DNA of 63,435 bases, counting the filler. It is 5 parts of 5 records of this genome, joined end to end, with 100 filler letters (N's around TTAATTAATTAA, not from the genome) between each part and the next. Parts side by side here need not be neighbours in the genome. Positions count along the whole stretch, not along the records: positions 11,403 to 29,393 come from SRR20825010_2416; 4 more parts are not named here. One strand, written 5' to 3'. Below, piece after piece: positions 14,636-29,493 of the stretch. Each line of letters opens with the position of its first letter. Position 1 is the stretch's first letter. Below the pieces are notes generated by a model. The model was given only the letters and a program-made list of their open reading frames with translations. It was not told where the DNA came from and searched no databases. Made by a program: the position numbers and the translations under genes.

Positions 14636-16099
14636 TTACTCAAAGTTATCGGCCACAATTTTGGCGGACAATAAGCACAATGGGATTCCACCTCCTGGGT
14701 GAACGCTTCCACCACAAAAATACAATCCTTTGATCCGTTTTGAAAAATTAGGATGCCTCAAAAATGCAGCATACTTATTATTTGAGCTGTTTCCATAGAG
14801 CGCGCCTTGCGTAGATGAGGTACGGACCTCAATTTTTATTGGGTCTAAAATGTCTTCTACTTCAATCAAAGGCTCAATATCTTCACCCAATTGTTCAGAG
14901 AGTTTGACTAAGATATTCTTTCTAGCTTCTTTAATTATCTCTTCCCAATCTTGCCCTTGATTATTAGGTACATTAATCATGGTGAACCAATTTTGACAGC
15001 CTTCTGGGGCATCATCTGGCTTTTGGGTCGAAGTGATATTTACATACACTGTAGGGTCTTCGTAAACACTTCCTTTTTTGAATATGTGTTGGAATTCTTT
15101 TTCATAATCATTTGAGAAGAAAATGTTATGAAGATCGAGTTGTTTAAAGTTCTTCTTGATCCCCCAATAAAAAATAAGCGCAGAGCTGGACTTGGGCTGA
15201 TTGATGAGTTTTGTAGGTTTTTGTTCGCCTTTCAATAGTTTTTCATAGGTGTTTACAATATCCATGTTACTCACTACCCTATCCATTTTATGGAATCCAA
15301 ATTTGGTAATCACCCCTTTGGTTTGCCCCTTGTGTAATGTAATCTTGCTGACGGGTGTATTGAAAAGGAATTTGACTCCCACTTTTTTTGCCAAAGTGTA
15401 AAGACTTTGTGTGATATCATGCATCCCTTGAGTCGGAAAGTAGGCACCTATCCCAAATTCCAAATGCGGAATAATGTTCATTGTGCCAGGGGCTTGGTAA
15501 GGATCCGAGCCATTATAAGTAGCGTAACGATCAAAGAGTTGTACCACTTTTTCACTTTTAAACCTCGCCTTGTTGACCTGATGCATGCTGCTATTAAAAT
15601 TGAATTTAGATAGCTTCCCGTAGGATAGGATCGCGCGCTTACTTAGCCATGTACTAAGTTTATGCAATGACTTTTGCATAAATAGCGGTGATAGAGATGA
15701 ATAGAGGAAAGCACTTTTACTCAGTGCTTTCTCAATGTTTTCCTTTGGCTCTCCTGTTTTTTGATGGATCTCCTCTTTTAATGCCTCAATGTCTGCCACA
15801 GCATTGATCTCGGTGCCATCGGGGTAGAAATATTTACAGGTAGTATCAAGTTTTTTGTAATTAAAGTATGCTTTGGTGTCCAAACCATGCAACTCAAAAA
15901 GTGCTTCAATTTCTTCTGGTAATGTAAATAATGAAGGTCCAGCGTCAAAGCGATAGTTACCCAATTGAATTTCGGTAAGTTTTCCTCCTGGGTAGTTATT
16001 GGCTTCAAAAACAGATACGATATATCCCTTCTTCGCTAATCGAATAGCACATGCCAAACCTGCAATACCAGAGCCTATAATGGCCACGGTTTTTCTCAT
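14636..16099 (-). CDS. crtD: Phytoene-desaturase-family carotenoid desaturase (CrtD-like)
   Basis: GSGIAG dinucleotide fold, YRFDAGPSLFTLP, RYATYNGSDP, GGSVHPGGGIPLCLLS. Confidence 0.75.
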   Translation of the reverse strand: MRKTVAIIGSGIAGLACAIRLAKKGYIVSVFEANNYPGGKLTEIQLGNYRFDAGPSLFTLPEEIEALFELHGLDTKAYFNYKKLDTTCKYFYPDGTEINAVADIEALKEEIHQKTGEPKENIEKALSKSAFLYSSLSPLFMQKSLHKLSTWLSKRAILSYGKLSKFNFNSSMHQVNKARFKSEKVVQLFDRYATYNGSDPYQAPGTMNIIPHLEFGIGAYFPTQGMHDITQSLYTLAKKVGVKFLFNTPVSKITLHKGQTKGVITKFGFHKMDRVVSNMDIVNTYEKLLKGEQKPTKLINQPKSSSALIFYWGIKKNFKQLDLHNIFFSNDYEKEFQHIFKKGSVYEDPTVYVNITSTQKPDDAPEGCQNWFTMINVPNNQGQDWEEIIKEARKNILVKLSEQLGEDIEPLIEVEDILDPIKIEVRTSSTQGALYGNSSNNKYAAFLRHPNFSKRIKGLYFCGGSVHPGGGIPLCLLSAKIVADNFE

Positions 16100-16296
16100 A
16101 GAATTAAGTTTTCTACTGTATTGTAACTAAATGGGCGTTGGGGGGAGGTGTTTGTTTGTAATCAACAAGGAATACATGGCGAAAAAATATACTTTCGTTT
16201 ACAATTCCAAACAAATGGAGAGTTTATGATCTAGATTAATGCTTTTGGTATCTCATTTTCTATATTAACTCACCATGACAGAAGTGATTTGGGTAT

Positions 16297-17550
16297 TTAT
16301 GCAAATCGCTCAACATCTAGTAAAGGAGATACAATTGATGGTTTCTTACCCAAGATCTCTTCTGAGAGCATATGTCCTGTAATTGGCCCCAAAGTAAAAC
16401 CAAGCATTGCGTGTCCAGTTCCCACAAGGAGGTTTTTGTATTTTTTTGTCCGGCCAATGTAGGGCAGGCCATCTGGTGTGCATGGACGCAAACCAGCCCA
16501 AGTTTCAATTTGAGAGAAATCTTGCTCTTGAAACTGAGGCATAAATTCCTTCACGGATTTGATGATCCCCTGAACCCTTTTTTCATTGATATTCAAACTC
16601 GTGCCAGCAATTTCCATGGTGCCAGCAATGCGTAAACCATGCATCATTGGTGTGGTCGCCACTCTTCCTTCCACCAAAATTGAAGGAAGCTTAGGCATAG
16701 CAATTGGGCTTGGAAGTGTAAAACTATATCCTTTTCCTGCTTGTAAAGGAATGTCAACCTTCAACTGCTTCATCAGTATTGGCGACCAAGAACCCGCAGA
16801 AAGCACATACTCATCAGCAGAGAATTCTCCTTTTGAAGTAATCAGTTTTTCTAATTTAAAACCTTTATGAATGATTTTTTCCAGTTCGGTATTGTACTGG
16901 AAGTTGACACCCATTTGGGTTAGTATTTCCTTGAACTTTTGCATGAATACATTGGGTGTCATCCATGCATCGCAACCAAAATATACCGAACCCGCCATAT
17001 TATACTGCACGTTTGGCTCCATGGCTTCGGTCTCAGTACGGCTCAAAACCTCAGCTTCGAGCCCAAAGGATTTGGCTAGTTCTACCAATTCAATTTCGTG
17101 GTGAAGAGCACTTTCGGTCTTGCAGATCATCAGAAGCCCAGGTTTCTTATAACCCGCTTCAATGTTTTCCTCAGCCATGATTTTTTCATAGAGCGATTGA
17201 CTTTGAACCGTCAGGTCATAAAGCACTTGGGCAGCAGCTCCTGCTTTAACTATCGTTGCCGATTTCTTGAAAAGTAATCCCCATTTAATAAGGTCTCGAT
17301 TAAGGCGCGGCTTAATATAAAATGGACTTTCAGCATTGAGCATCCACTTAAGGCCCTGACTGATAATTCCCGGAGAAGCCATTGGAATTAAGTGGCTAGG
17401 CGCAACGTATCCCGCATTTCCCATAGAGCAGTTACTATTACCATCTGTGTTGTCGATTACGGTGACTTCCACTCCTTGTTTACGAAGGAAATAGGCAGTG
17501 CTTAGCCCCACAATGCCAGCACCAATCACAATTACTTTTTTCGTTTCCAT
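16297..17550 (-). CDS. FAD-dependent D-amino-acid dehydrogenase (probable D-hydroxyproline dehydrogenase)
   Basis: GAGIVG, SMGNAG, GKGYS, WAGLRPCTPDGLP, GHAMLG motifs; lies in the hydroxyproline operon. Confidence 0.85.
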   Translation of the reverse strand: METKKVIVIGAGIVGLSTAYFLRKQGVEVTVIDNTDGNSNCSMGNAGYVAPSHLIPMASPGIISQGLKWMLNAESPFYIKPRLNRDLIKWGLLFKKSATIVKAGAAAQVLYDLTVQSQSLYEKIMAEENIEAGYKKPGLLMICKTESALHHEIELVELAKSFGLEAEVLSRTETEAMEPNVQYNMAGSVYFGCDAWMTPNVFMQKFKEILTQMGVNFQYNTELEKIIHKGFKLEKLITSKGEFSADEYVLSAGSWSPILMKQLKVDIPLQAGKGYSFTLPSPIAMPKLPSILVEGRVATTPMMHGLRIAGTMEIAGTSLNINEKRVQGIIKSVKEFMPQFQEQDFSQIETWAGLRPCTPDGLPYIGRTKKYKNLLVGTGHAMLGFTLGPITGHMLSEEILGKKPSIVSPLLDVERFA

Positions 17551-17553
17551 TGT

Positions 17554-18552
17554 CTAAATCACCTGAAAACCATAGGCGTATGGATCATCGTCATCAATTA
17601 CTATTGTATTGTATCCCGTGATTCTGGCCCAGCCTTCTATGCTTGGAATAATACCCGAATACGCGCCTAATTTAACTACATCTTCGACTTTTCCAGTAAA
17701 CTGGCTGCCAATAATACTCTCGTGAACGAATTGGTCTCCTTTATTCAGTTTTCCTTTGGCAGCCCATTGTGCCATCCGTGCCGAAGTACCTGTGCCACAA
17801 GGAGATCTGTCGATGGCTTTGTCTCCATAAAATACTGCGTTTCTAGCCGTAGAATTAGGTTGAAGCGGTAGCCCCGTCCAAAGTACGTGACTTAAACCGC
17901 CAATGGTGTCATTTTCTGGATGGCTGAAAGTGTTTTCTGCATTGATGCGCTCTCTAATCTTCAAACTCCAACCGATCAATTGCATGGCGGTGTAATCGGC
18001 CATGTCTCGGTAATTTTCTTGAGGGTCAACAATGGCATAATAATTTCCGCCATAGGCCACATCCACCTTAAGCATTCCTAAATCAGGACATTCAACTTCG
18101 ATATTTTCTTTCGCCAAGTAAGCAGGCACGTTGGTCAGCTTTACCGAAGTCACTCTTTTCCCTTCCTGCTGATATTCAATTTTCACCAAACCCGCTGGTG
18201 TTTCTAGCCTCAAGTGCCCTGGTATTTTGGGTTGAACCAAACCCTCCTCAATCATAATTGTCACTGTACCGATGGTTCCATGGCCGCACATGGGCAAGCA
18301 ACCACTGGTTTCGATAAACAACACTCCGATGTCATTTGCGGGGTCAGATGGCGGATAAAGAATACTCCCAGACATCATATCGTGTCCACGCGGCTCAAAC
18401 ATCAATCCCTTTCGAATCCAGTCGAATTCTCTGAGAAAATGCTGTCGCTTTTCACTCATATTGGCACCTTCTAGAATAGGACCGCCCCCAGCTACCAGTC
18501 TAACTGGATTACCGCAAGTATGGGCATCGATGCAGAAAAAACGCTTGTTCAT
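17554..18552 (-). CDS. 4-hydroxyproline 2-epimerase (proline racemase family)
   Basis: DAHTCGNP, EPRGH, MCGHGTIG and DRSPCGTGTSA catalytic Cys motifs. Confidence 0.92.
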   Translation of the reverse strand: MNKRFFCIDAHTCGNPVRLVAGGGPILEGANMSEKRQHFLREFDWIRKGLMFEPRGHDMMSGSILYPPSDPANDIGVLFIETSGCLPMCGHGTIGTVTIMIEEGLVQPKIPGHLRLETPAGLVKIEYQQEGKRVTSVKLTNVPAYLAKENIEVECPDLGMLKVDVAYGGNYYAIVDPQENYRDMADYTAMQLIGWSLKIRERINAENTFSHPENDTIGGLSHVLWTGLPLQPNSTARNAVFYGDKAIDRSPCGTGTSARMAQWAAKGKLNKGDQFVHESIIGSQFTGKVEDVVKLGAYSGIIPSIEGWARITGYNTIVIDDDDPYAYGFQVI

Positions 18553-18610
18553 ATTAATGAGATAGGGGATTAGTGAATTAATGAAATAAGGGAAAGAATG
18601 ATTGAATGTT
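18553..18610. repeat. Degenerate octamer tandem array downstream of four-helix-bundle gene 1
   Basis: ATTAATGA GATAGGGG ATTAGTGA ATTAATGA AATAAGGG AAAGAATG ATTGAATG; fills the whole intergenic space. Confidence 0.75.
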
Positions 18611-18970
18611 TTAGCGGTTGGTGTTTTTTCTGGCCTTTGATACGACTTTGAGTATTTCTAATGCTTCACTTTTGAATGGTGCTATTTGTTCTGGTTGAGC
18701 TAAATCTGCTTCCTCCATTACTTCCAGCCAAAAGAGTGTTTCATCGGCTTCTTCATTTACAATTGACATTTTAGCGAAAAATTCTGCTTGGGATCGGGCA
18801 ATACAAGCTGCTCTATAATTTGCTGCGGTCGATGTAACTGAACGTACTAGCTGTTTCCCCACAATATAGGTAGTGTCTGTCTTTTTGAGCTTACCATAGA
18901 ATTTAATTATTTCTACCGCCAGCTTTTTAGTTCTTGCCCTAAAAGCTTCAATAAATTCTACCTTTTCCAT
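18611..18970 (-). CDS. Four-helix-bundle protein (23S-IVS-protein / Avd-like family)
   Basis: MEKVEF...KQLVRSVTSTAANYRAAC.ARS.AEF.AK.SIV.EEADETLFWLE; 119 aa from the ATG at 18970. Confidence 0.9.
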   Translation of the reverse strand: MEKVEFIEAFRARTKKLAVEIIKFYGKLKKTDTTYIVGKQLVRSVTSTAANYRAACIARSQAEFFAKMSIVNEEADETLFWLEVMEEADLAQPEQIAPFKSEALEILKVVSKARKNTNR

Positions 18971-18978
18971 AGTCTTTT

Positions 18979-19181
18979 TTAATGAATTAAGGGAATAGTG
19001 AAGTAATGAGAAAATGAACGAAGGAATAAATGAGTTAATTGAGAAGTATAAAAAAGCAAGTAACTTATTAAAGCCCTTCTTCCTTCTTCCTTCTTCCTTC
19101 ATTAATTCATTCTTTCACTAACCCCATTTCTCCATATTTCATTCTTCCCTTAATTCCCTGACTCATTAATTCCTTAATCAA
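18979..19181. repeat. Inverted octamer arrays plus (CCTTCTT)n upstream of four-helix-bundle gene 1
   Basis: Purine-rich octamers 18979-19043, (CCTTCTT)x3 plus CCTTC at 19075-19100, complementary pyrimidine-rich octamers (ATTAATTC-like) 19101-19181. Confidence 0.8.
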
Positions 19182-20750
19182 TTATTTCCTTAACTCATTG
19201 TCAACTTTTCGCCAAATATTGAGAGCGTTCTCGGTCTTCAATTCCGAAGGAAGCATCTGATCAGGCCAATTTTGGTAGCAGATGGATCGGGTGAAACGAT
19301 AGATAGCATCCGTACCCACCGAAGTATATTTTCCATTAGTGCTGGCAGGGAATGGACCTCCATGATGCATGGCTGGGCAAACTTCAACTCCCGTTGGCAT
19401 TCCGTTAAAGAGGATTCTACCCACCTTTTGCGCAAGCGCGTCTACTGTTTCAGCATTTTCGGTCATGTCAATTTCTGTGGCCAATAATGTGCCTGTCAAT
19501 TGCCCTTGAAGTGATTGAGCTACTTGCTTCATTTCACTCTCATTTTCGCAGACCACCAATAATGTAAAGGGGCCGAAAACCTCTTCGTGAAGTTTTGGGT
19601 TATTTAGAAACTCATAAGCAGGAACAAACGCAGTTAATCCTTGTCCGCGGTTATCATCAGTTTCTGTAGCGTTTCCACTTAAGGTTACTCCTTGTTCTTT
19701 TAACAGCGCTTTTCTGTTGGCGTAATAGTTTTCAGCGATACCTTTATTCAGCATTGTAGAAGGAGCTGTTGCGGCAAGTGCTTCAGAAAGGGAAGAAGAA
19801 AATGCCTCCAATTCTGGCGATTGAATCCCCACCAATAAACCAGGGTTGGTACAAAACTGACCTACACCCATACTAACCGATGCGGCTACGGCCTTACCCA
19901 AATCGGCTGGGCTTTCTTTTAGTTTGTTAGGGAAAATAAATGTTGGGTTGATGCTCCCCATTTCTGCATACACAGGAATTGGTTCGTCTCTTTGGTTGGC
20001 CAAATCGAAAAGGGCTTTTCCTCCTCTAAATGAACCCGTAAAACCTACCGCCTTGATTTGCGGATGCTTTACCAATTGCTGACCCACAGGAATTCCGCCA
20101 TTCAACATGGAGAAAACGCCCTCGGGCATTCCGGTTTTTTGTGCAGCATTCAGAATTGCTTGCGACACCATTTCATTAGTGCCCAAATGTGATTCGTGCC
20201 CCTTTACGATTACTGGGTTTCCAGCGGCCAAAGCAGAAGCGGTATCGCCACCAGCCGTTGAAAAGGCCAAAGGAAAATTACTTGCTCCAAAGATGGCAAC
20301 AGGGCCAATGGCTACTTCCATTTTGCGCAAATCAGGTTTAGGCGCTGGCGCTCTGTCTGGAATTGCAGTGTCGATGGTGGCATTTACCCATGAGCCTTCG
20401 CGCACCAAATTGGCGAACATTTTCAACTGATTACAGGTACGGCCTCTTTCTGCTTGGATTCTGCCTTCTGGTAAACCTGATTCTCCACAAGCGCGTGCTA
20501 CTAAAGCATCACCCAAAGCCATGATTTCATCTGCAATGGCCTCTATGAAATCAGCTTTTTTAGATTGTGCTATGTTCTTGTAAGTTTGAAATGCCTGTGT
20601 TGCTTTTGCAACGGCTTTATCTATTTCAGTAGAAGTAGCCACCGAAAATGATTCAGCGAAAGCCTCGCCATTGGCTGGGTTGTGTGCAAAGAGTTGTGTG
20701 GTACCTTCTTTCGAAGGGGTTGATCCTATAAAGTTTGTTCCTTTAATCAT
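19182..20750 (-). CDS. Aldehyde dehydrogenase (alpha-ketoglutaric semialdehyde dehydrogenase type)
   Basis: FGASNFPLAFSTAGGDTASALAAG, GFTGS, AEMGSINP, GQFCTNPG, EEVFGP. Confidence 0.9.
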   Translation of the reverse strand: MIKGTNFIGSTPSKEGTTQLFAHNPANGEAFAESFSVATSTEIDKAVAKATQAFQTYKNIAQSKKADFIEAIADEIMALGDALVARACGESGLPEGRIQAERGRTCNQLKMFANLVREGSWVNATIDTAIPDRAPAPKPDLRKMEVAIGPVAIFGASNFPLAFSTAGGDTASALAAGNPVIVKGHESHLGTNEMVSQAILNAAQKTGMPEGVFSMLNGGIPVGQQLVKHPQIKAVGFTGSFRGGKALFDLANQRDEPIPVYAEMGSINPTFIFPNKLKESPADLGKAVAASVSMGVGQFCTNPGLLVGIQSPELEAFSSSLSEALAATAPSTMLNKGIAENYYANRKALLKEQGVTLSGNATETDDNRGQGLTAFVPAYEFLNNPKLHEEVFGPFTLLVVCENESEMKQVAQSLQGQLTGTLLATEIDMTENAETVDALAQKVGRILFNGMPTGVEVCPAMHHGGPFPASTNGKYTSVGTDAIYRFTRSICYQNWPDQMLPSELKTENALNIWRKVDNELRK

Positions 20751-20786
20751 GTTGTGTTTTTTGCTGCGCGAATAATTGACTTCAAT

Positions 20787-21701
20787 TTACAAATTCAAAT
20801 AGTCTGGCAATTCAGGACGGGTTTTAATTCCTGTTTCGATAATCTGTAGTACGTGATTTCTTTCTGCGCCTGAAAGCGCAAGTCTTGGTGCACGAACGTT
20901 TTCGGTACCAATCCCAGTGGCGACTTCTGCCAGTTTAATATTCTGAACCAATTTAGCATTAATATCAAGCTCCAATAACGGCAAGAACCAACGGTAGATT
21001 GTCAAAGCTTCTAAATGCCTTCCCGCTTTCTGAAGTCTATAAATGGCCACGGTTTCTTTTGGGAAAGCGCAAACCAAACCAGCTACCCAGCCATTGGCAC
21101 CCATAAATAAGCTTTCCAAAGCCAGTGTGTCAACGCCAGAAAGGATTTTGAAACGATCGCCAAAACGATTGATCATTCGGGTGATGTTTGAAATGTCGCG
21201 GGTAGATTCTTTTACCGACTGGATGTTTTCGCATTCGGCCAGTTGCTCGAACATGTCCAAAGTCACCTCAATTTTATAATCTATGGGGTTGTTATAGACC
21301 ATGATAGGCAAGTCGGTAGAGTTGGCAACTGCTTTATAATAAGTAACCGTTTCATGATCGTCAGCTTTATAGCGCATTGGAGGGAGCATCATTAAACCGC
21401 TAGCCCCGTTCTTTTTGGCTTTTTCCGCAGCAATAATGGCCGCTTTCGTAGTTTGCTCAGCAATGTTCATGATCACAGGAACTTTGCTCGTTACCATGTC
21501 AACTGTGGCGCTTACAAGCTCATCCTTTTCATCTTCCAAGAGTGCACTGGCTTCGCCTAAAGTGCCACCTAAAATAATGCCGTCAACACCAGCGGCCAAT
21601 TGCGCTTGGATGTTGGTTTCAAACATTTTTAAATCAAGCTTATCGTCATTTGTAAACTTTGTGGTTACCGCTGGGTAAACGCCTTGCCATGCTACTTTCA
21701 T
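20787..21701 (-). CDS. DapA-family enzyme (probable pyrroline-4-hydroxy-2-carboxylate deaminase)
   Basis: WQGVYPAVTT, GTLGE, YNNP, KES motifs; start at MKVAW; operon context. Confidence 0.85.
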   Translation of the reverse strand: MKVAWQGVYPAVTTKFTNDDKLDLKMFETNIQAQLAAGVDGIILGGTLGEASALLEDEKDELVSATVDMVTSKVPVIMNIAEQTTKAAIIAAEKAKKNGASGLMMLPPMRYKADDHETVTYYKAVANSTDLPIMVYNNPIDYKIEVTLDMFEQLAECENIQSVKESTRDISNITRMINRFGDRFKILSGVDTLALESLFMGANGWVAGLVCAFPKETVAIYRLQKAGRHLEALTIYRWFLPLLELDINAKLVQNIKLAEVATGIGTENVRAPRLALSGAERNHVLQIIETGIKTRPELPDYLNL

Positions 21702-21826
21702 CGTATTGTTTTTTTTGGCTAAGGTAGTGGAGTCCATGCTGTACAACTTTGCGAAAATTCACCAATACTAATATGATATTTGCTACTTGGTTAACTTAGG
21801 TTTATTTTTAGGCTTAAATAATACAG

Positions 21827-22675
21827 GTGAAAGTACTTCCTTTTAAAATTCCAAAAACCGAAGCGTCATCGCTTTACTTACAAATTGATGATGAACAGTA
21901 TTTCTATGACATGCTTCATCAGCATTCTGAAATTCAAATTACATGGATCATCTCAGGGGAAGGAACGCTGATTCATGGCGATCATTTAGGGAGTTTTAAA
22001 CCGTGGCAAGTCTTTGTGATGGGCTCCAATGTTCCTCATGTTTTTCGATGCGACAAAAAGTATTACGAACAGGAAATGCAAGCCTTGTCGAAGTCGATTT
22101 TCTTTCGTGCCGAACATTTGAGAGAAACTTCAAAGCTGTTTCCTGAAATCAGAGAACTACTCCAGTTTATTCAGAATGCGGAAAGAGGTATTAGGGTGAA
22201 GGATAACTTCACGCCTCAAATGATAAGTGCTTTTGAAAAGGTATTTGAAACCAATGGCTTAAAACGGTTGAATGCATTTTTTGAACTGCTCCATTTGTTT
22301 GGGAACGAGCAAAGCATCGCTTACCTCAATGAGTTGCCCCAAAAATCAGTGAAAGAAGCTGAGGGAAGACGACTGGATGATATCTTCCGCTTTACCTTAG
22401 AAAATTTTGGCAGACGCATTACTTTGGAAGAAGTGGCCGAAGTAGCCAATATGAACAAAGCCTCTTTCTGTCGCTATTTCAAGCAACACACCCGCAAAAC
22501 CTATATTGATTTTCTAAACGACTACCGCATAGGACAAGCCTGTAAACTCTTGCTCAATAAAGACAATACGGTTTCTCAAGTTTGCTTCGAATCTGGCTTT
22601 AGTAACCTCTCCAACTTCAACCGAAAATTTAAAGTAGTAACAGGCAAAACTCCAAGGGAGTATCGGGGGAGTTAA
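21827..22675 (+). CDS. AraC-family regulator divergent from the hydroxyproline operon
   Basis: Cupin LHQHSEIQ N-terminus; FCRYFKQHT...SGFSNLSNFNRKFK..TGKTPREYR HTH. Confidence 0.92.
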   Translation: MKVLPFKIPKTEASSLYLQIDDEQYFYDMLHQHSEIQITWIISGEGTLIHGDHLGSFKPWQVFVMGSNVPHVFRCDKKYYEQEMQALSKSIFFRAEHLRETSKLFPEIRELLQFIQNAERGIRVKDNFTPQMISAFEKVFETNGLKRLNAFFELLHLFGNEQSIAYLNELPQKSVKEAEGRRLDDIFRFTLENFGRRITLEEVAEVANMNKASFCRYFKQHTRKTYIDFLNDYRIGQACKLLLNKDNTVSQVCFESGFSNLSNFNRKFKVVTGKTPREYRGS

Positions 22676-24026
22676 ATGGATCTAACTTCTTGCCAAGGTA
22701 GTACATCAAAACCATCGGACCTTTTTTGTGCCTCTTTGCCTCCGTATATTACTTTTCCATCTGTTTGCCCTGTGATTTTTTGCCAAAAGTGGAGGTTTTT
22801 AAAATAGCTTGAGTTGACTGTCATTCCAGATTTGATTTCAATGACCTGTGAAGAAATACCATGATCAATTAATAGATCAATTTCATTACCAGAGTTATCG
22901 AGCCAATAATATAGATTAGAAACCTCTCCTTGGTTATATCTGTTTTTCAAAGCTTCAGTAATCACAAAATTTTCAAAAATTGCCCCTCGAAATGGGTGCT
23001 GTGCCAATTGTTCTGGGTTTGTAATTCGGAGTAGACTACAGAGCACCCCTGTATCATAGAAGTATATCTTAGGTGACTTAACTATTCGCTTATTGAAGTT
23101 TTTGTAGTAAGGAGGAAGTTGGTAGACAATATAACTGGCTTCCAAAACACCAAGCCATGATTTAACAGTTTTGTTATCTATCCCCGTTTCTATGGCCAAA
23201 TTATTATAATTGACCCTTTGTCCGGCCCTACCAGCACAAAGGGAAAGAAACCTTTCAAAAACTAATAGGTTTTCTATACCCTTGATTTGACGAACATCAC
23301 GTTCTACATATGTTTGAGTGTAAGCCGGAATCCAATCGGTTGGAGGGATATGTTCAGCTTGTATTGAAGGGTATTGTCCCTTCCATAGTAAGGTGTTTAG
23401 GTCGGACAGTGCATGTGGGATTTGACTTAACTCTGATGTAGAAAATGGTAGAAGGTGAATTTGCCCTGTTCTTCCTGCCAAACTCTGGCTAACACTCTCT
23501 AGTAACTGTAAGTTGTTTGACCCTGTCAGTATAAACCTTCCTTTTTCGTCACTCTCATCAAGGATTTGCTGAAGATATGAAAGAAGCTGAGGAGCCCTTT
23601 GGATTTCGTCAAGAACAGCACCTTTTGAATATTGGTTTAGGAATCCACGTGGATCTTCGATAGCAAAATTTCGGGTGTCGGGGTTTTCTAAAGAAAGATA
23701 AGGCTTGTCTTTAAAATACATGCGGGCTAGGGTGGTTTTTCCACTTTGTCTTGGGCCAGTTATGACCACTGCCTTAAACACTTTAGCTAAGTCCATTGCT
23801 TTCTTAGCCGCAATTCTTTCTTTTTTTACAAAATTGGATTCTGATTCCATATTTGTAAATATAGGAATTTTCCGAATATTTTGTGCTTCTAGTATTGAAG
23901 TAAATACCAGCTATGTTGAAAGACGGTTTGGCTATTTTAGGTTCTTATTGCAGCAAGCTCTTTAACTTCAACCGAAAATTTAAAGAAGTAACAGGCAAAA
24001 CTCCGAGGGAGTATAAGGGGAGTTAG
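22613..24026 (+). repeat. 63-bp direct repeat (22613-22675 and 23964-24026) flanking the ATPase gene
   Basis: 58/63 identical; corresponds to the 3' end of the AraC gene. Confidence 0.9.
22672..23850 (-). CDS. AAA_14 ATPase with DUF4143 domain
   Basis: GPRQSGKTT, LDEIQ, ILTGS, YVERD, PKIYFYDTG, GAIFEN, EIDLL...IEIK. Confidence 0.9.
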   Translation of the reverse strand: MESESNFVKKERIAAKKAMDLAKVFKAVVITGPRQSGKTTLARMYFKDKPYLSLENPDTRNFAIEDPRGFLNQYSKGAVLDEIQRAPQLLSYLQQILDESDEKGRFILTGSNNLQLLESVSQSLAGRTGQIHLLPFSTSELSQIPHALSDLNTLLWKGQYPSIQAEHIPPTDWIPAYTQTYVERDVRQIKGIENLLVFERFLSLCAGRAGQRVNYNNLAIETGIDNKTVKSWLGVLEASYIVYQLPPYYKNFNKRIVKSPKIYFYDTGVLCSLLRITNPEQLAQHPFRGAIFENFVITEALKNRYNQGEVSNLYYWLDNSGNEIDLLIDHGISSQVIEIKSGMTVNSSYFKNLHFWQKITGQTDGKVIYGGKEAQKRSDGFDVLPWQEVRSI

Positions 24027-27911: not shown

Positions 27912-28931
27912 TTAATTTAAAAATTGTTCCTTAGATAAGTTTAACCACTCCAAAGTGGCATTGCAGAATATGTCTTCCACCACTTCGTTTGATAAGCCCA
28001 TTTTCTCAATAAAGGCCCCAATTTCAAGGTCGCCTAAAGGGAAAGGGTAATCAGAACCAAGGGTGACTCTTTTAGATCCCTGCATCTCTAAAATGTATTT
28101 CATCATTAATGGGTCGTGGGTGATAGAATCTACCCAAAACTTCCCAATGTATTCTCGTGGGCTTACGGTATTGTCAATCGCCACTAAATCTGGACGGCAG
28201 TTAAAGCCGTGCTCAATTCGGCCAATGGTAGGTAAAAAGGAACCGCCAGCATGGGAGAAATTGAACCTTAGGTTAGGAAGTCTCTCCAACACGCCTCCAA
28301 AAATAAGGGAACAAGCGGCCCTTGAGGTTTCAGCAGGCATACCCACCAACCAAGGCAGCCAGTAACGTTCAATGCTATGAAAGCCCATCATGTTCCATGG
28401 GTGAATCATCACAGCCATGTCCAGTTCTTCACAAGCTTTAAAGATTTGAAAGAAGCGTTCGCTGCTTAAGTTTTTATCATTGATGTTCGACCCAATCTGA
28501 ATCCCAGGTAGCTTCAATTCATGCTTACAACGATGTAATTCCTGAATGGCCAAATCTTCATCCTGCATCGGGATAGTGGCCAGCCCGATGTAATTTTTAG
28601 GGTAGTCGCGGCAAATGCCGGCAATGTGGTCGTTCAAAAACCTACTGACTTCCAGTCCATCATGCGGCTTGGCATCATAAGAAAACATGACTGGAATGGT
28701 AGAAATAACCTGCACTTGTGTTCCAAACTGCGCATACTCTTCCATTCTGATTTTTGGATCCCAACAATTCGATTGGATTTCACGGAAGAATTTGCTGCCT
28801 TTCATCATCATGGCGGCTCCCTCTTTGTGGTGGTGCAGATGAATGAAATCACCATAGCCAAACTTCTCTGTCCATTTGGGCAGATGTTCCGGAATGATGT
28901 GGGTGTGCATGTCTATCTTTAAGTCAGTCAT
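27912..28931 (-). CDS. 2-amino-3-carboxymuconate-6-semialdehyde decarboxylase (ACMSD-type amidohydrolase)
   Basis: DMHTH, STIPVMFSY, HPW, WLPWLVGMPAET, GSDYPFPLG; kynurenine operon. Confidence 0.88.
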   Translation of the reverse strand: MTDLKIDMHTHIIPEHLPKWTEKFGYGDFIHLHHHKEGAAMMMKGSKFFREIQSNCWDPKIRMEEYAQFGTQVQVISTIPVMFSYDAKPHDGLEVSRFLNDHIAGICRDYPKNYIGLATIPMQDEDLAIQELHRCKHELKLPGIQIGSNINDKNLSSERFFQIFKACEELDMAVMIHPWNMMGFHSIERYWLPWLVGMPAETSRAACSLIFGGVLERLPNLRFNFSHAGGSFLPTIGRIEHGFNCRPDLVAIDNTVSPREYIGKFWVDSITHDPLMMKYILEMQGSKRVTLGSDYPFPLGDLEIGAFIEKMGLSNEVVEDIFCNATLEWLNLSKEQFLN

Positions 28932-28958
28932 TCGTTAATTAGTCAATGGTCATTCGTT
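28926..28958. repeat. Degenerate heptamer array (AATGACY on the mRNA strand) overlapping a stop and a start codon
   Basis: Minus strand AACGAATGACC ATTGACT AATTAACG AATGACT. Confidence 0.65.
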
Positions 28959-29315
28959 GTTTGCTGTTTTACCAATTGTTTTAATATAGGCATTCAGCGA
29001 TTTATGAAGATCTTCAAGATCGGTCATTAGTTGGTCATATTGTTCTTTTGGAAGAAAGCCTCTTCTGAAACTTTTACCAAGCCAATTTTTAGTTTCTAGT
29101 AATGACCCTCGGGAATAAAAGCAGAAATTGCGATTCTCTTTATAGAAGTAGCGACCATAACCTTCTGCAATATTAGCGCTAATCGAATCTACGCTTCGCG
29201 CCATTTGTTTGACTATCGTGTCTTTGGCAAAATAATCCCAGTCAACAATAATGTTCCATATTTTGTCTGAAAGAATGTCTGCCTGATTATAAACTCTTAG
29301 CTCTTCTAGTTTCAT
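28950..29315 (-). CDS. Four-helix-bundle protein (23S-IVS-protein / Avd-like family)
   Basis: LEELRVY...KQMARSVDSISANIAEGYGR...F..YSRGSLLETKNWL. Confidence 0.92.
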   Translation of the reverse strand: MKLEELRVYNQADILSDKIWNIIVDWDYFAKDTIVKQMARSVDSISANIAEGYGRYFYKENRNFCFYSRGSLLETKNWLGKSFRRGFLPKEQYDQLMTDLEDLHKSLNAYIKTIGKTANNE

Positions 29316-29393: not shown

Positions 29394-29493
29394 NNNNNNN
29401 NNNNNNNNNNNNNNNNNNNNNNNNNNNNNNNNNNNNNTTAATTAATTAANNNNNNNNNNNNNNNNNNNNNNNNNNNNNNNNNNNNNNNNNNNN
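29394..29493. other. Artificial contig linker
   Basis: N-run with TTAATTAATTAA. Confidence 0.98.

Follow-up and report, generated by a model that had tools for sequence, protein, structure and literature searches.

The window analysed here, a stretch of 63,435 nucleotides (nt) made of five parts joined end to end, comes from a Roseivirga-like bacterium of the Cytophagales and carries on its minus strand a hydroxyproline (Hyp) catabolic operon. In this operon, the gap between the aldehyde dehydrogenase (ALDH) gene and the 4-hydroxyproline epimerase gene is filled by a gene for a four-helix-bundle (FHB) protein, which is flanked by three arrays of degenerate octamers: A, with an AATGA-type core, and A'prox and A'dist, both of the TCATT type (Table 1). 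The gene and its arrays constitute a cassette of 629 bp (18553–19181), which takes up exactly the space between the stop codon of ALDH and the start codon of the epimerase and is AT-rich relative to its flanks (GC 0.347, compared with 0.453 and 0.455 in the neighbours). The nearest loci outside the window, L001–L003, are from two Roseivirga metagenome-assembled genomes and R. ehrenbergii, and the protein of the small open reading frame (ORF) is 96–97% identical to theirs. We regard it as very probable that the element is a resident copy of a repeat-armed FHB gene cassette, inserted at an operon junction.

Table 1. Coordinates of the cassette and of its host operon, listed along the minus strand.
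Feature	Positions	Strand	Remarks
AraC regulator			divergent from the Hyp operon
DHDPS-family gene	20787–21746	−	Hyp operon
Aldehyde dehydrogenase (ALDH), upstream host gene	19182–20750	−	Pfam Aldedh 5.5e-42
ALDH stop codon	19182–19184	−	
Array A, 5' arm	19097–19199	−	13 phased degenerate octamers, AATGA-like core, purine-rich in the mRNA
GAAGGAA heptamer run	19075–19100	−	3.7 perfect copies, period 7, 100% matches (Tandem Repeats Finder); opens the hairpin loop
Upstream hairpin loop	19044–19096	−	not conserved, 33–35% identity to L001–L003
Array A'prox	18976–19043	−	pyrimidine-rich, TCATT-type octamers complementary to A
FHB gene, 119 aa	18611–18970	−	PF05635 / TIGR02436, 'ANYRAAC' subfamily
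Array A'dist, 3' arm	18553–18610	−	TCATT-type; 0 nt before the epimerase ATG (18552)
4-Hydroxyproline epimerase, downstream host gene	17554–18552	−	NCBIfam NF010578 equivalog, 600 bits vs cut-off 376; Pfam Pro_racemase 1.1e-133
D-Amino-acid oxidase (DAO) family gene	16297–17550	−	

Array A begins inside the ALDH gene, at 19199, and the last six ALDH codons are in octamer phase. The order and positions of the features agree with the preliminary description made from the letters of the window, except that array A starts 18 nt earlier than was given there; the two inverted matches quoted in it, 25/32 and 22/27, are exact. The GAAGGAA run is absent from L001–L003, in which the whole loop is replaced. 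Only 5 nt separate the end of A'prox from the ORF start codon, and an A-rich stretch covers the last bases of the array together with this gap. Automatic ORF calling extends the FHB gene to an ATG at 19102 (163 aa), although all homologues start at 18970. On the degenerate arrays, Tandem Repeats Finder reports the heptamers, one stretch with a period of 16 nt and nothing else, while an inverted-repeat search recovers arms of 56 nt (71%), 39 nt (77%) and 31 nt (81%).

Around the family as a whole, flanking inverted arrays of 7–8-mers are strongly enriched, as was anticipated for an intervening element. All 32 loci with an FHB protein at least 53% identical (L001–L032) have the gene preceded by phased AATGA units and followed by TCATT units. 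Of the 48 loci with more distant proteins, L041 alone shows at least three upstream AATGA units; the inverted arms of the more distant loci are made of other 7–8-mers, with z of at least 5 in 33/43 of a set that was not de-duplicated. Three arrays are present in the window and in 5 of the 32 related loci, namely L001–L003 and, independently, the flavobacterial L005 and L006, and the arrays of L005 are expanded to about 130–200 nt. Five Roseivirga genomes contain 4–11 PF05635 family genes each. Thirty family loci were taken from Roseivirga, three of them being the Hyp cassette itself and four giving no ORF with a simple finder (the count of further PF05635 loci examined in the five genomes is 25); the remaining loci mostly occupy a short gap between co-directional genes and have inverted octamer or heptamer arms of their own. 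Arm sequences differ between the cassettes of one genome. Across 63 non-redundant cassettes, the two arms of one cassette pair with each other at −25.2 kcal/mol, compared with −16.3 kcal/mol for foreign arms, and none of 5000 permutations is as good.

The arms lie close to the codons of the host genes. In 46 cassettes with scorable arms, the median distance from the upstream stop codon to the 5' arm is 4 nt (at most 10 nt in 37/46), and that from the 3' arm to the next ATG is 7 nt (at most 10 nt in 28/46); the inner gaps between arm and FHB ORF are larger, with medians of 25.5 and 12.5 nt. In the flavobacterial Hyp copies, the upstream stop codon is often situated within the first AATGA unit, and the start codon of the DAO gene lies inside the last arm unit, as TTG in 10, ATG in 10 and GTG in 2 of 22 copies. 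Correspondingly, in the downstream arms of L004–L032, the first oxidase codons (M-K-H/N-C-I...) are in phase with the TCATT array. Gene callers may misplace the DAO starts in such cassette-bearing flavobacterial operons.

The junction occupied by the cassette differs between lineages. In 20 operons without a cassette at this place, the ALDH|epimerase spacer measures 4–33 nt in 17 and 84–171 nt in three. Members of the same FHB clade are located at ALDH|epimerase in Roseivirga, at epimerase|DAO in 23 flavobacterial loci and Reichenbachiella, and at 2TM|LytTR in Aquimarina. The Aquimarina sister copy, flanked by a 2TM gene and the gene of a LytTR response regulator, clusters with the Hyp copies of Aquimarina at 100/100 support, and a more distant AATGA-armed relative from the Calditrichota (40% identity) is found between gcvT and an amylase gene. 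The copies of Roseivirga and Reichenbachiella group inside the flavobacterial set at 82/87 support, which is weak because the FHB protein is short. Of the 27 best homologues outside Roseivirga, 24 reside in Hyp operons.

Occupancy is patchy. The cassette is present in 2/83 epimerase-bearing genomes from an even sample of 151 Flavobacteriaceae genomes and in 4/40 epimerase-bearing operons from 61 Tenacibaculum genomes, one of these four copies being broken by an internal TGA (G164); none of the 80 best epimerase loci from other lineages, including three other Roseivirga/Roseivirgaceae assemblies, contains it. In Tenacibaculum, filled and empty junctions coexist at 92–94% epimerase identity, and the empty sites have an ATG start and a different DAO N-terminus behind a 74–75-nt spacer. 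The comparison of filled and empty Tenacibaculum sites gives no clean target-site duplication; the cassette stands in place of the native spacer, with the downstream start codon within the last arm unit. No transposase or recombinase is encoded in the cassette or its neighbours, an enzyme elsewhere in the genome not having been sought. The presence and absence of the cassette among orthologous operons sustains the proposal of an intervening element, and the FHB cassette is a discrete element of this kind, not a fixed operon gene. Three public DNA runs contain the locus of the window (contigs only), and one of these is a relative that covers the full stretch with 151 differences and 8 gaps; the cassette is present in all three, and no allele without it was found among them. 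The search for sequencing runs with this locus gave none of RNA.

The Tenacibaculum epimerase|DAO junctions L202–L209 and L015 exist in three states among close relatives: a 74–75-nt spacer with a small GC hairpin (G188, G192 and G201), the FHB cassette (G007, G202 and G198, and G164 with its internal TGA) and a different insert of ~340–360 nt, whose 90-aa ORF is without an NCBIfam match (G171 and G189). A gene of the ornithine cyclodeaminase/mu-crystallin family occupies the ALDH|epimerase gap in certain Hyp operons of Roseivirga and Saprospiraceae (L081:3055–3993 and L083:2989–3963). A phage or plasmid vehicle was considered and rejected: there is no phage match, and the 14 matching plasmid records are all below 60% identity and mostly cyanobacterial.

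The FHB protein scores above the cut-offs of both Pfam PF05635 (55.1 bits, cut-off 33.8) and TIGR02436 (77.8 bits, cut-off 24). Its AlphaFold2 model, with a pLDDT of 94.9, consists of four helices at residues 3–27, 32–56, 61–87 and 93–116. The nearest solved structure is BT_0352 (PDB 2rld), with an E-value of 1.7e-13, an identity of 29–32% and Foldseek TM values of 0.81–0.89 over both normalisations, followed by Xcc0516 (2gsc, TM 0.74–0.82) and then by Avd of the diversity-generating retroelements (DGRs; 4dwl and 8ub7, TM 0.72–0.80). The assignment to PF05635 and the connection with Avd and with the 23S rRNA intervening sequences (IVSs), which the preliminary description gave for this gene, are confirmed by Pfam, TIGR02436 and Foldseek. 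BT_0352 and Xcc0516, the closest solved relatives, are structural-genomics members of the family; the 2rld entry comprises five chains, and the Xcc0516 assembly is a pentamer. DGR Avd shares the four-helix-bundle fold and the Pfam family with the window protein, but the sequence identity is only 9–10%, no reverse transcriptase occurs among the eight ORFs of the scanned stretch 14636–23850, and Avd genes are not known to have octamer-array arms.

In the motif GxxRxxxSxxxNxxE, reported for family members in PMC3936711, the window protein keeps R, S and N, and its last position is A (ANYRAAC). The ANYRAAC form is present in 13 of 16 aligned sequences, including those of Bacteroides, Akkermansia and Planctomycetes, and the other three have the classic ANIAEG; as judged from this alignment, the distinction is one between subfamilies. 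Residues Q40, N51 and E77 do not vary. The Calditrichota relative with AATGA/TCATT arms (L041:2995–3453) has an ORF of 152 aa with an apparent in-frame insert of ~30 codons inside the ANYRAAC...ARS stretch. Neither this FHB protein nor the second one of the window, described below, matches any PADLOC family, and a defence system was rejected as a candidate.

Compared with L001–L003, the FHB ORF has a dN/dS of 0.032–0.035 at dS 0.42–0.69, and the epimerase has 0.029–0.037; by these substitution rates, the ORF is a protein gene under strong purifying selection, equal to that on the epimerase. Third codon positions of the ORF are 72–80% identical to those of L001–L003. A'prox is 90% identical, array A is 75–82% identical with indels of 8 and 24 alignment columns, and A'dist, the least conserved array, is 69–72% identical with 31–36 gap columns. 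Across 25 cassette-bearing operons, the mean identities are 66% for the FHB protein and 81% for the epimerase, and the two sets correlate (Mantel r 0.52, 0/2000 permutations as high); therefore, the cassette shares its history with the adjacent epimerase, through descent or co-transfer. The preliminary description had thought of a selfish or regulatory element. The term selfish is only partly apt: the ORF is constrained as strongly as the epimerase and has diverged together with it.

Extensive pairing is possible between the arrays. The upstream hairpin formed by A, the loop and A'prox folds at −59.9 kcal/mol (z −4.84), with none of 200 dinucleotide shuffles as good, and is significant in the three-array relatives L001–L003, L005 and L006 as well (z −2.4 to −6.1). 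The duplex of A with A'dist reaches −42.9 kcal/mol (0/300 shuffles as good), and that of A with A'prox −41.8 kcal/mol (4/300). Both pairings that had been suggested for the first array are hence possible on energetic grounds, the distal one covering the initiation region of the epimerase. Chance or low complexity as the source of the arm pairing is ruled out by the duplex, hairpin and own-versus-foreign-arm tests. When the whole region is folded, the structure of minimum energy engages A twice, its 5' half with A'dist and its 3' half with A'prox, and blocking either partner costs about 18–22 kcal/mol; the fold of the whole 671-nt region, which is dominated by the ORF, is not better than that of shuffles (z −1.07; 3/20 as good). 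In L001–L003, the folded local hairpin consumes all of A and leaves A'dist free. The modelled mean probability that the epimerase start region is unpaired rises from 0.33 to 0.55 with a ribosome footprint masked at the ALDH stop codon, and from 0.33 to 0.45 with A'prox masked.

Genes of this kind were first found inside the intervening sequences of ribosomal RNA. Such an IVS shares with the cassette a PF05635 cargo, a size of about 430–630 nt, complementary ends that enclose the ORF and can form a long stem (here the arms), a horizontal acquisition followed mostly by inheritance with the host locus and, presumably also here, embedding in and dependence on a host transcript. According to PMC4990558, a 428-nt IVS in helix 45 of 23S rRNA, carrying an S23p ORF of this family that is untranslated and decaying, is excised by RNase III. 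In the window, by contrast, the host is a protein-coding operon junction instead of rRNA helix 25 or 45, the arms are tandem octamer arrays, three instead of two, and the ORF is intact and constrained (dN/dS 0.03); RNase III excision, demonstrated for the IVS in PMC4990558, is a conjecture for the stem described here.

We tentatively favour reading 18553–19181 as the operon-borne counterpart of an ORF-bearing 23S rRNA IVS. It is likewise plausible, with similar reserve, that the cassette is a co-transcribed IVS-type element, in which a modelled end-to-end stem keeps the host cistrons coupled and may be a substrate of RNase III. The cassette would be transcribed as part of the Hyp operon mRNA; A would pair locally with A'prox, and the 5' part of A would pair over the long range with A'dist. 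The ORF would lie in the loop, and the foot of a single stem would bring together the stop of ALDH and the start of the epimerase. This stem would mask the epimerase start, ribosomes finishing ALDH would melt the foot and expose the start, and therefore translational coupling across the junction would survive the insertion. The same stem would be a plausible RNase III substrate, as in the rRNA IVSs. Meanwhile, the FHB protein may be a nucleic-acid-binding oligomer like Avd and BT_0352, probably serving the upkeep or rare relocation of the element rather than hydroxyproline chemistry. Both neighbours are co-oriented with the FHB gene in 48 of 65 non-redundant family loci and both are opposed in 2. 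The Bacteroidota −7 motif TAnnTTTG is absent from the sense strand of 18500–19400, and sigma-70-type promoter and terminator matches inside the cassette are at chance level only. The best Rfam match has 33 bits against a gathering score of 100, and 18300–19400 contains no rRNA match.

Several results weigh against a function of the arms in the transcript. The mismatches of 38 cassettes comprise 27 G·U, 57 A·C and 150 of the transversion type, without any G·U excess on the sense strand and in about the proportions that random mismatches give; per cassette, G·U mismatches outnumber the A·C ones in 11, and the reverse holds in 15. The duplexes of the sense and antisense strands are alike in energy (9 vs 12 cassettes, Wilcoxon p 0.79). 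Within the AATGA clade, the 3' arm of the same cassette is no better a partner for the 5' arm than those of 21 other cassettes (−30.6 vs −31.3 kcal/mol; 3648/5000 permutations at least as good), and because the arms of this clade are interchangeable between cassettes, there is no compensatory evolution at the variable trinucleotides. In addition, the stems are AU-rich and much interrupted, with a longest unbroken helix of ~11 bp in the outer stem; the accessibility values are those of a thermodynamic model only; and an element with inverted ends that landed in a very short spacer would likewise hug the stop and start codons. In the 5' arms, G exceeds C in 31 of 42 cassettes and is below C in 7, a polarity that is given no weight because the cassettes are not phylogenetically independent, 13 of them belonging to one clade.

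These results bear directly on the possibility that the arms act as DNA, as terminal inverted repeats or hairpin/cruciform ends used for moving, copying or deleting the cassette, in which case the tandem structure would be a by-product of replication slippage and the RNA pairing incidental. The missing G·U excess and strand asymmetry are what such arms would give. The whole-unit length changes, the gene-less arrays, the ORF-less hairpin and the broken copy fit DNA-level dynamics: between close relatives, the arrays change in octamer steps (8 and 24 columns in A, 31–36 gap columns in A'dist), those of L005 have grown to the lengths given above, the cassette has relocated between junctions with patchy occupancy among close relatives, gene-less AATGA arrays and one ORF-less hairpin occur in the same genomes, G164 is interrupted, and, as single-stranded DNA, the upstream palindrome is again able to fold (z −3.3). 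However, no recombinase or transposase is present in or adjoining the cassette, and Tenacibaculum offers no clean target-site duplication. The arms also vary between the cassettes of one genome, which would prevent any one enzyme acting in trans from recognising them by sequence, and the co-orientation of 48 loci against 2 is not required by DNA-level arms, although selection on polarity could yield it. On balance, we consider this explanation possible but rather doubtful.

Two further explanations give the sequences a regulatory or metabolic role. Array A could alternate between A'prox and A'dist as a riboregulator that turns translation of the epimerase, and of the DAO, on or off. The near-isoenergetic duplexes would suit such a switch, as would the free A'dist of L001–L003, the modelled response of the epimerase start to masking A'prox, the conservation of A'prox (90%) beyond that of synonymous sites (72–80%) and the recurrence of the three-array layout in L005 and L006. 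Yet three arrays, the layout that a switch needs, are confined to the window and 5 of the 32 related loci; the other 27 lack one array, and they are mostly in Hyp operons, with four Aquimarina copies at another junction. Moreover, both pairings coexist in the minimum-energy fold of the window, A being long enough for both, conservation is lowest in A'dist, with its large indels, nothing that would sense a ligand or a protein is evident, and nothing in Rfam comes near the gathering score. Such a switch is accordingly improbable. We hold it to be equally improbable that the FHB protein is a domesticated accessory of hydroxyproline catabolism, a regulator or chaperone with the arrays as its expression signals. 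The residence of 24 of the 27 best non-Roseivirga homologues in Hyp operons, the correlated divergence from the epimerase and the dN/dS of 0.03 speak for it, but the correlation is equally expected if the cassette merely travels with the adjacent gene. The FHB gene is absent from the Hyp loci of 81/83 Flavobacteriaceae, from 36/40 Tenacibaculum operons and from 80/80 of the best epimerase loci of other lineages; its intra-operon position varies by lineage, the same clade occurs in the Aquimarina two-component-system operon, and family members sit in unrelated operons throughout these genomes.

The favoured reading of a co-transcribed, IVS-type element can be extended to the whole family, although we think the extension unlikely to hold in full. 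FHB cassettes would then form an autonomous class of wide distribution, 'operon introns without splicing', and would settle exactly on stop/start junctions. Their terminal octamer arrays would zip the flanking cistrons together in the transcript, via a translational-coupling bridge, RNase III excision or both, and the host would barely be affected; the Avd-like protein would bind nucleic acid on behalf of the element itself, for its maintenance or for a rare and possibly RNA-mediated relocation, and the 23S rRNA IVSs would be the special case that landed in rRNA. PF05635 is a very large family, for which the printed links found are rRNA IVSs, DGR Avd and a remark on cas loci. If a mobile junction element that rides on transcripts is real, it would explain the origin of ORF-bearing rRNA IVSs, supply a function or at least an origin for a class of short tandem intergenic repeats, and offer a route by which an insert can enter an operon without loss of translational coupling. 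Annotation would be affected too, since the arms of this clade overlap the stop and start codons of host genes and even provide them. The copy in the window is a good test case, with a culturable and harmless marine host and an operon that should be hydroxyproline-inducible, and its three-array layout provides two competing stems that can be mutated separately.

Other known elements resemble the cassette in part. Miniature inverted-repeat and short tandem intergenic elements have in common with it the inverted ends, the gene-less arrays and the whole-unit length changes, but the cassette differs from them in its conserved protein gene, its cassette-specific tandem octamer arms and the lack of any identified transposase or target duplication. 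A passage of PMC3936711 places 23S_rRNA_IVP genes wedged between operon genes, for example between cmr3 and cmr2, and takes them as CRISPR-associated functions; flanking arms and cassette behaviour are not described in that passage. Family genes are also listed in annotation tables of PMC8700078, PMC8491059 and PMC5524665. No description of repeat-armed FHB cassettes outside rRNA was found in the literature, with supplements and subscription journals beyond reach.

The host operon is part of a stretch (14636–23850) in which a Pfam scan identifies eight ORFs, namely oxidoreductases, Hyp-pathway enzymes, the AraC regulator and a DUF4143 ATPase. From general knowledge of the pathway, we take the DHDPS, ALDH and DAO genes to have their Hyp-pathway roles here, and the ALDH is presumably the alpha-ketoglutarate-semialdehyde dehydrogenase of hydroxyproline catabolism.

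AATGA-type arrays are also found away from the cassette. The pattern has 11 matches in G001–G003, about 8 of them away from the cassette, and no such array was found in G004 or G005. At L191–L200 in G001–G003, AATGA-type arrays without an FHB gene lie between co-directional ORFs, and L200 is a hairpin without an ORF, in which AATGA units are followed by TCATT units. Some of these gene-less arrays stand beside GGAAGNCC-type repeats similar to the arms of a different cassette (L190). The idea that the FHB protein acts in trans on AATGA arrays elsewhere was rejected, two cassette-bearing flavobacterial genomes having 0–1 matches, and it is undercut further by a Chryseobacterium genome with a cassette-free Hyp operon and one long array. 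This is the long perfect (AATGATTA)n array at G010:C4:838308–838424, in the genome whose Hyp operon is L142.

A second, unrelated FHB cassette is located at 28950–29315 on the minus strand of the window (TIGR02436 1.8e-25) and is 95% identical to L183. Its upstream arm, at about 29394–29355, contains at least four GGTCATTG units, and a degenerate complementary arm lies downstream at 28949–28922, where the cassette adjoins an ORF starting at 28931. The run of Ns at 29394–29492, placed around the TTAATTAATTAA linker, begins exactly in the upstream array of this second cassette. In two Roseivirga genomes, L171 (G004) and L183 (G003), the latter corresponding to 28950–29315 of the window, occupy the same host junction, between a small upstream ORF and a downstream ORF with the same N-terminus, and yet their FHB proteins are only 26% identical and their arms are different, which, at the level of sequence comparison, points to independent insertion or to cassette replacement.

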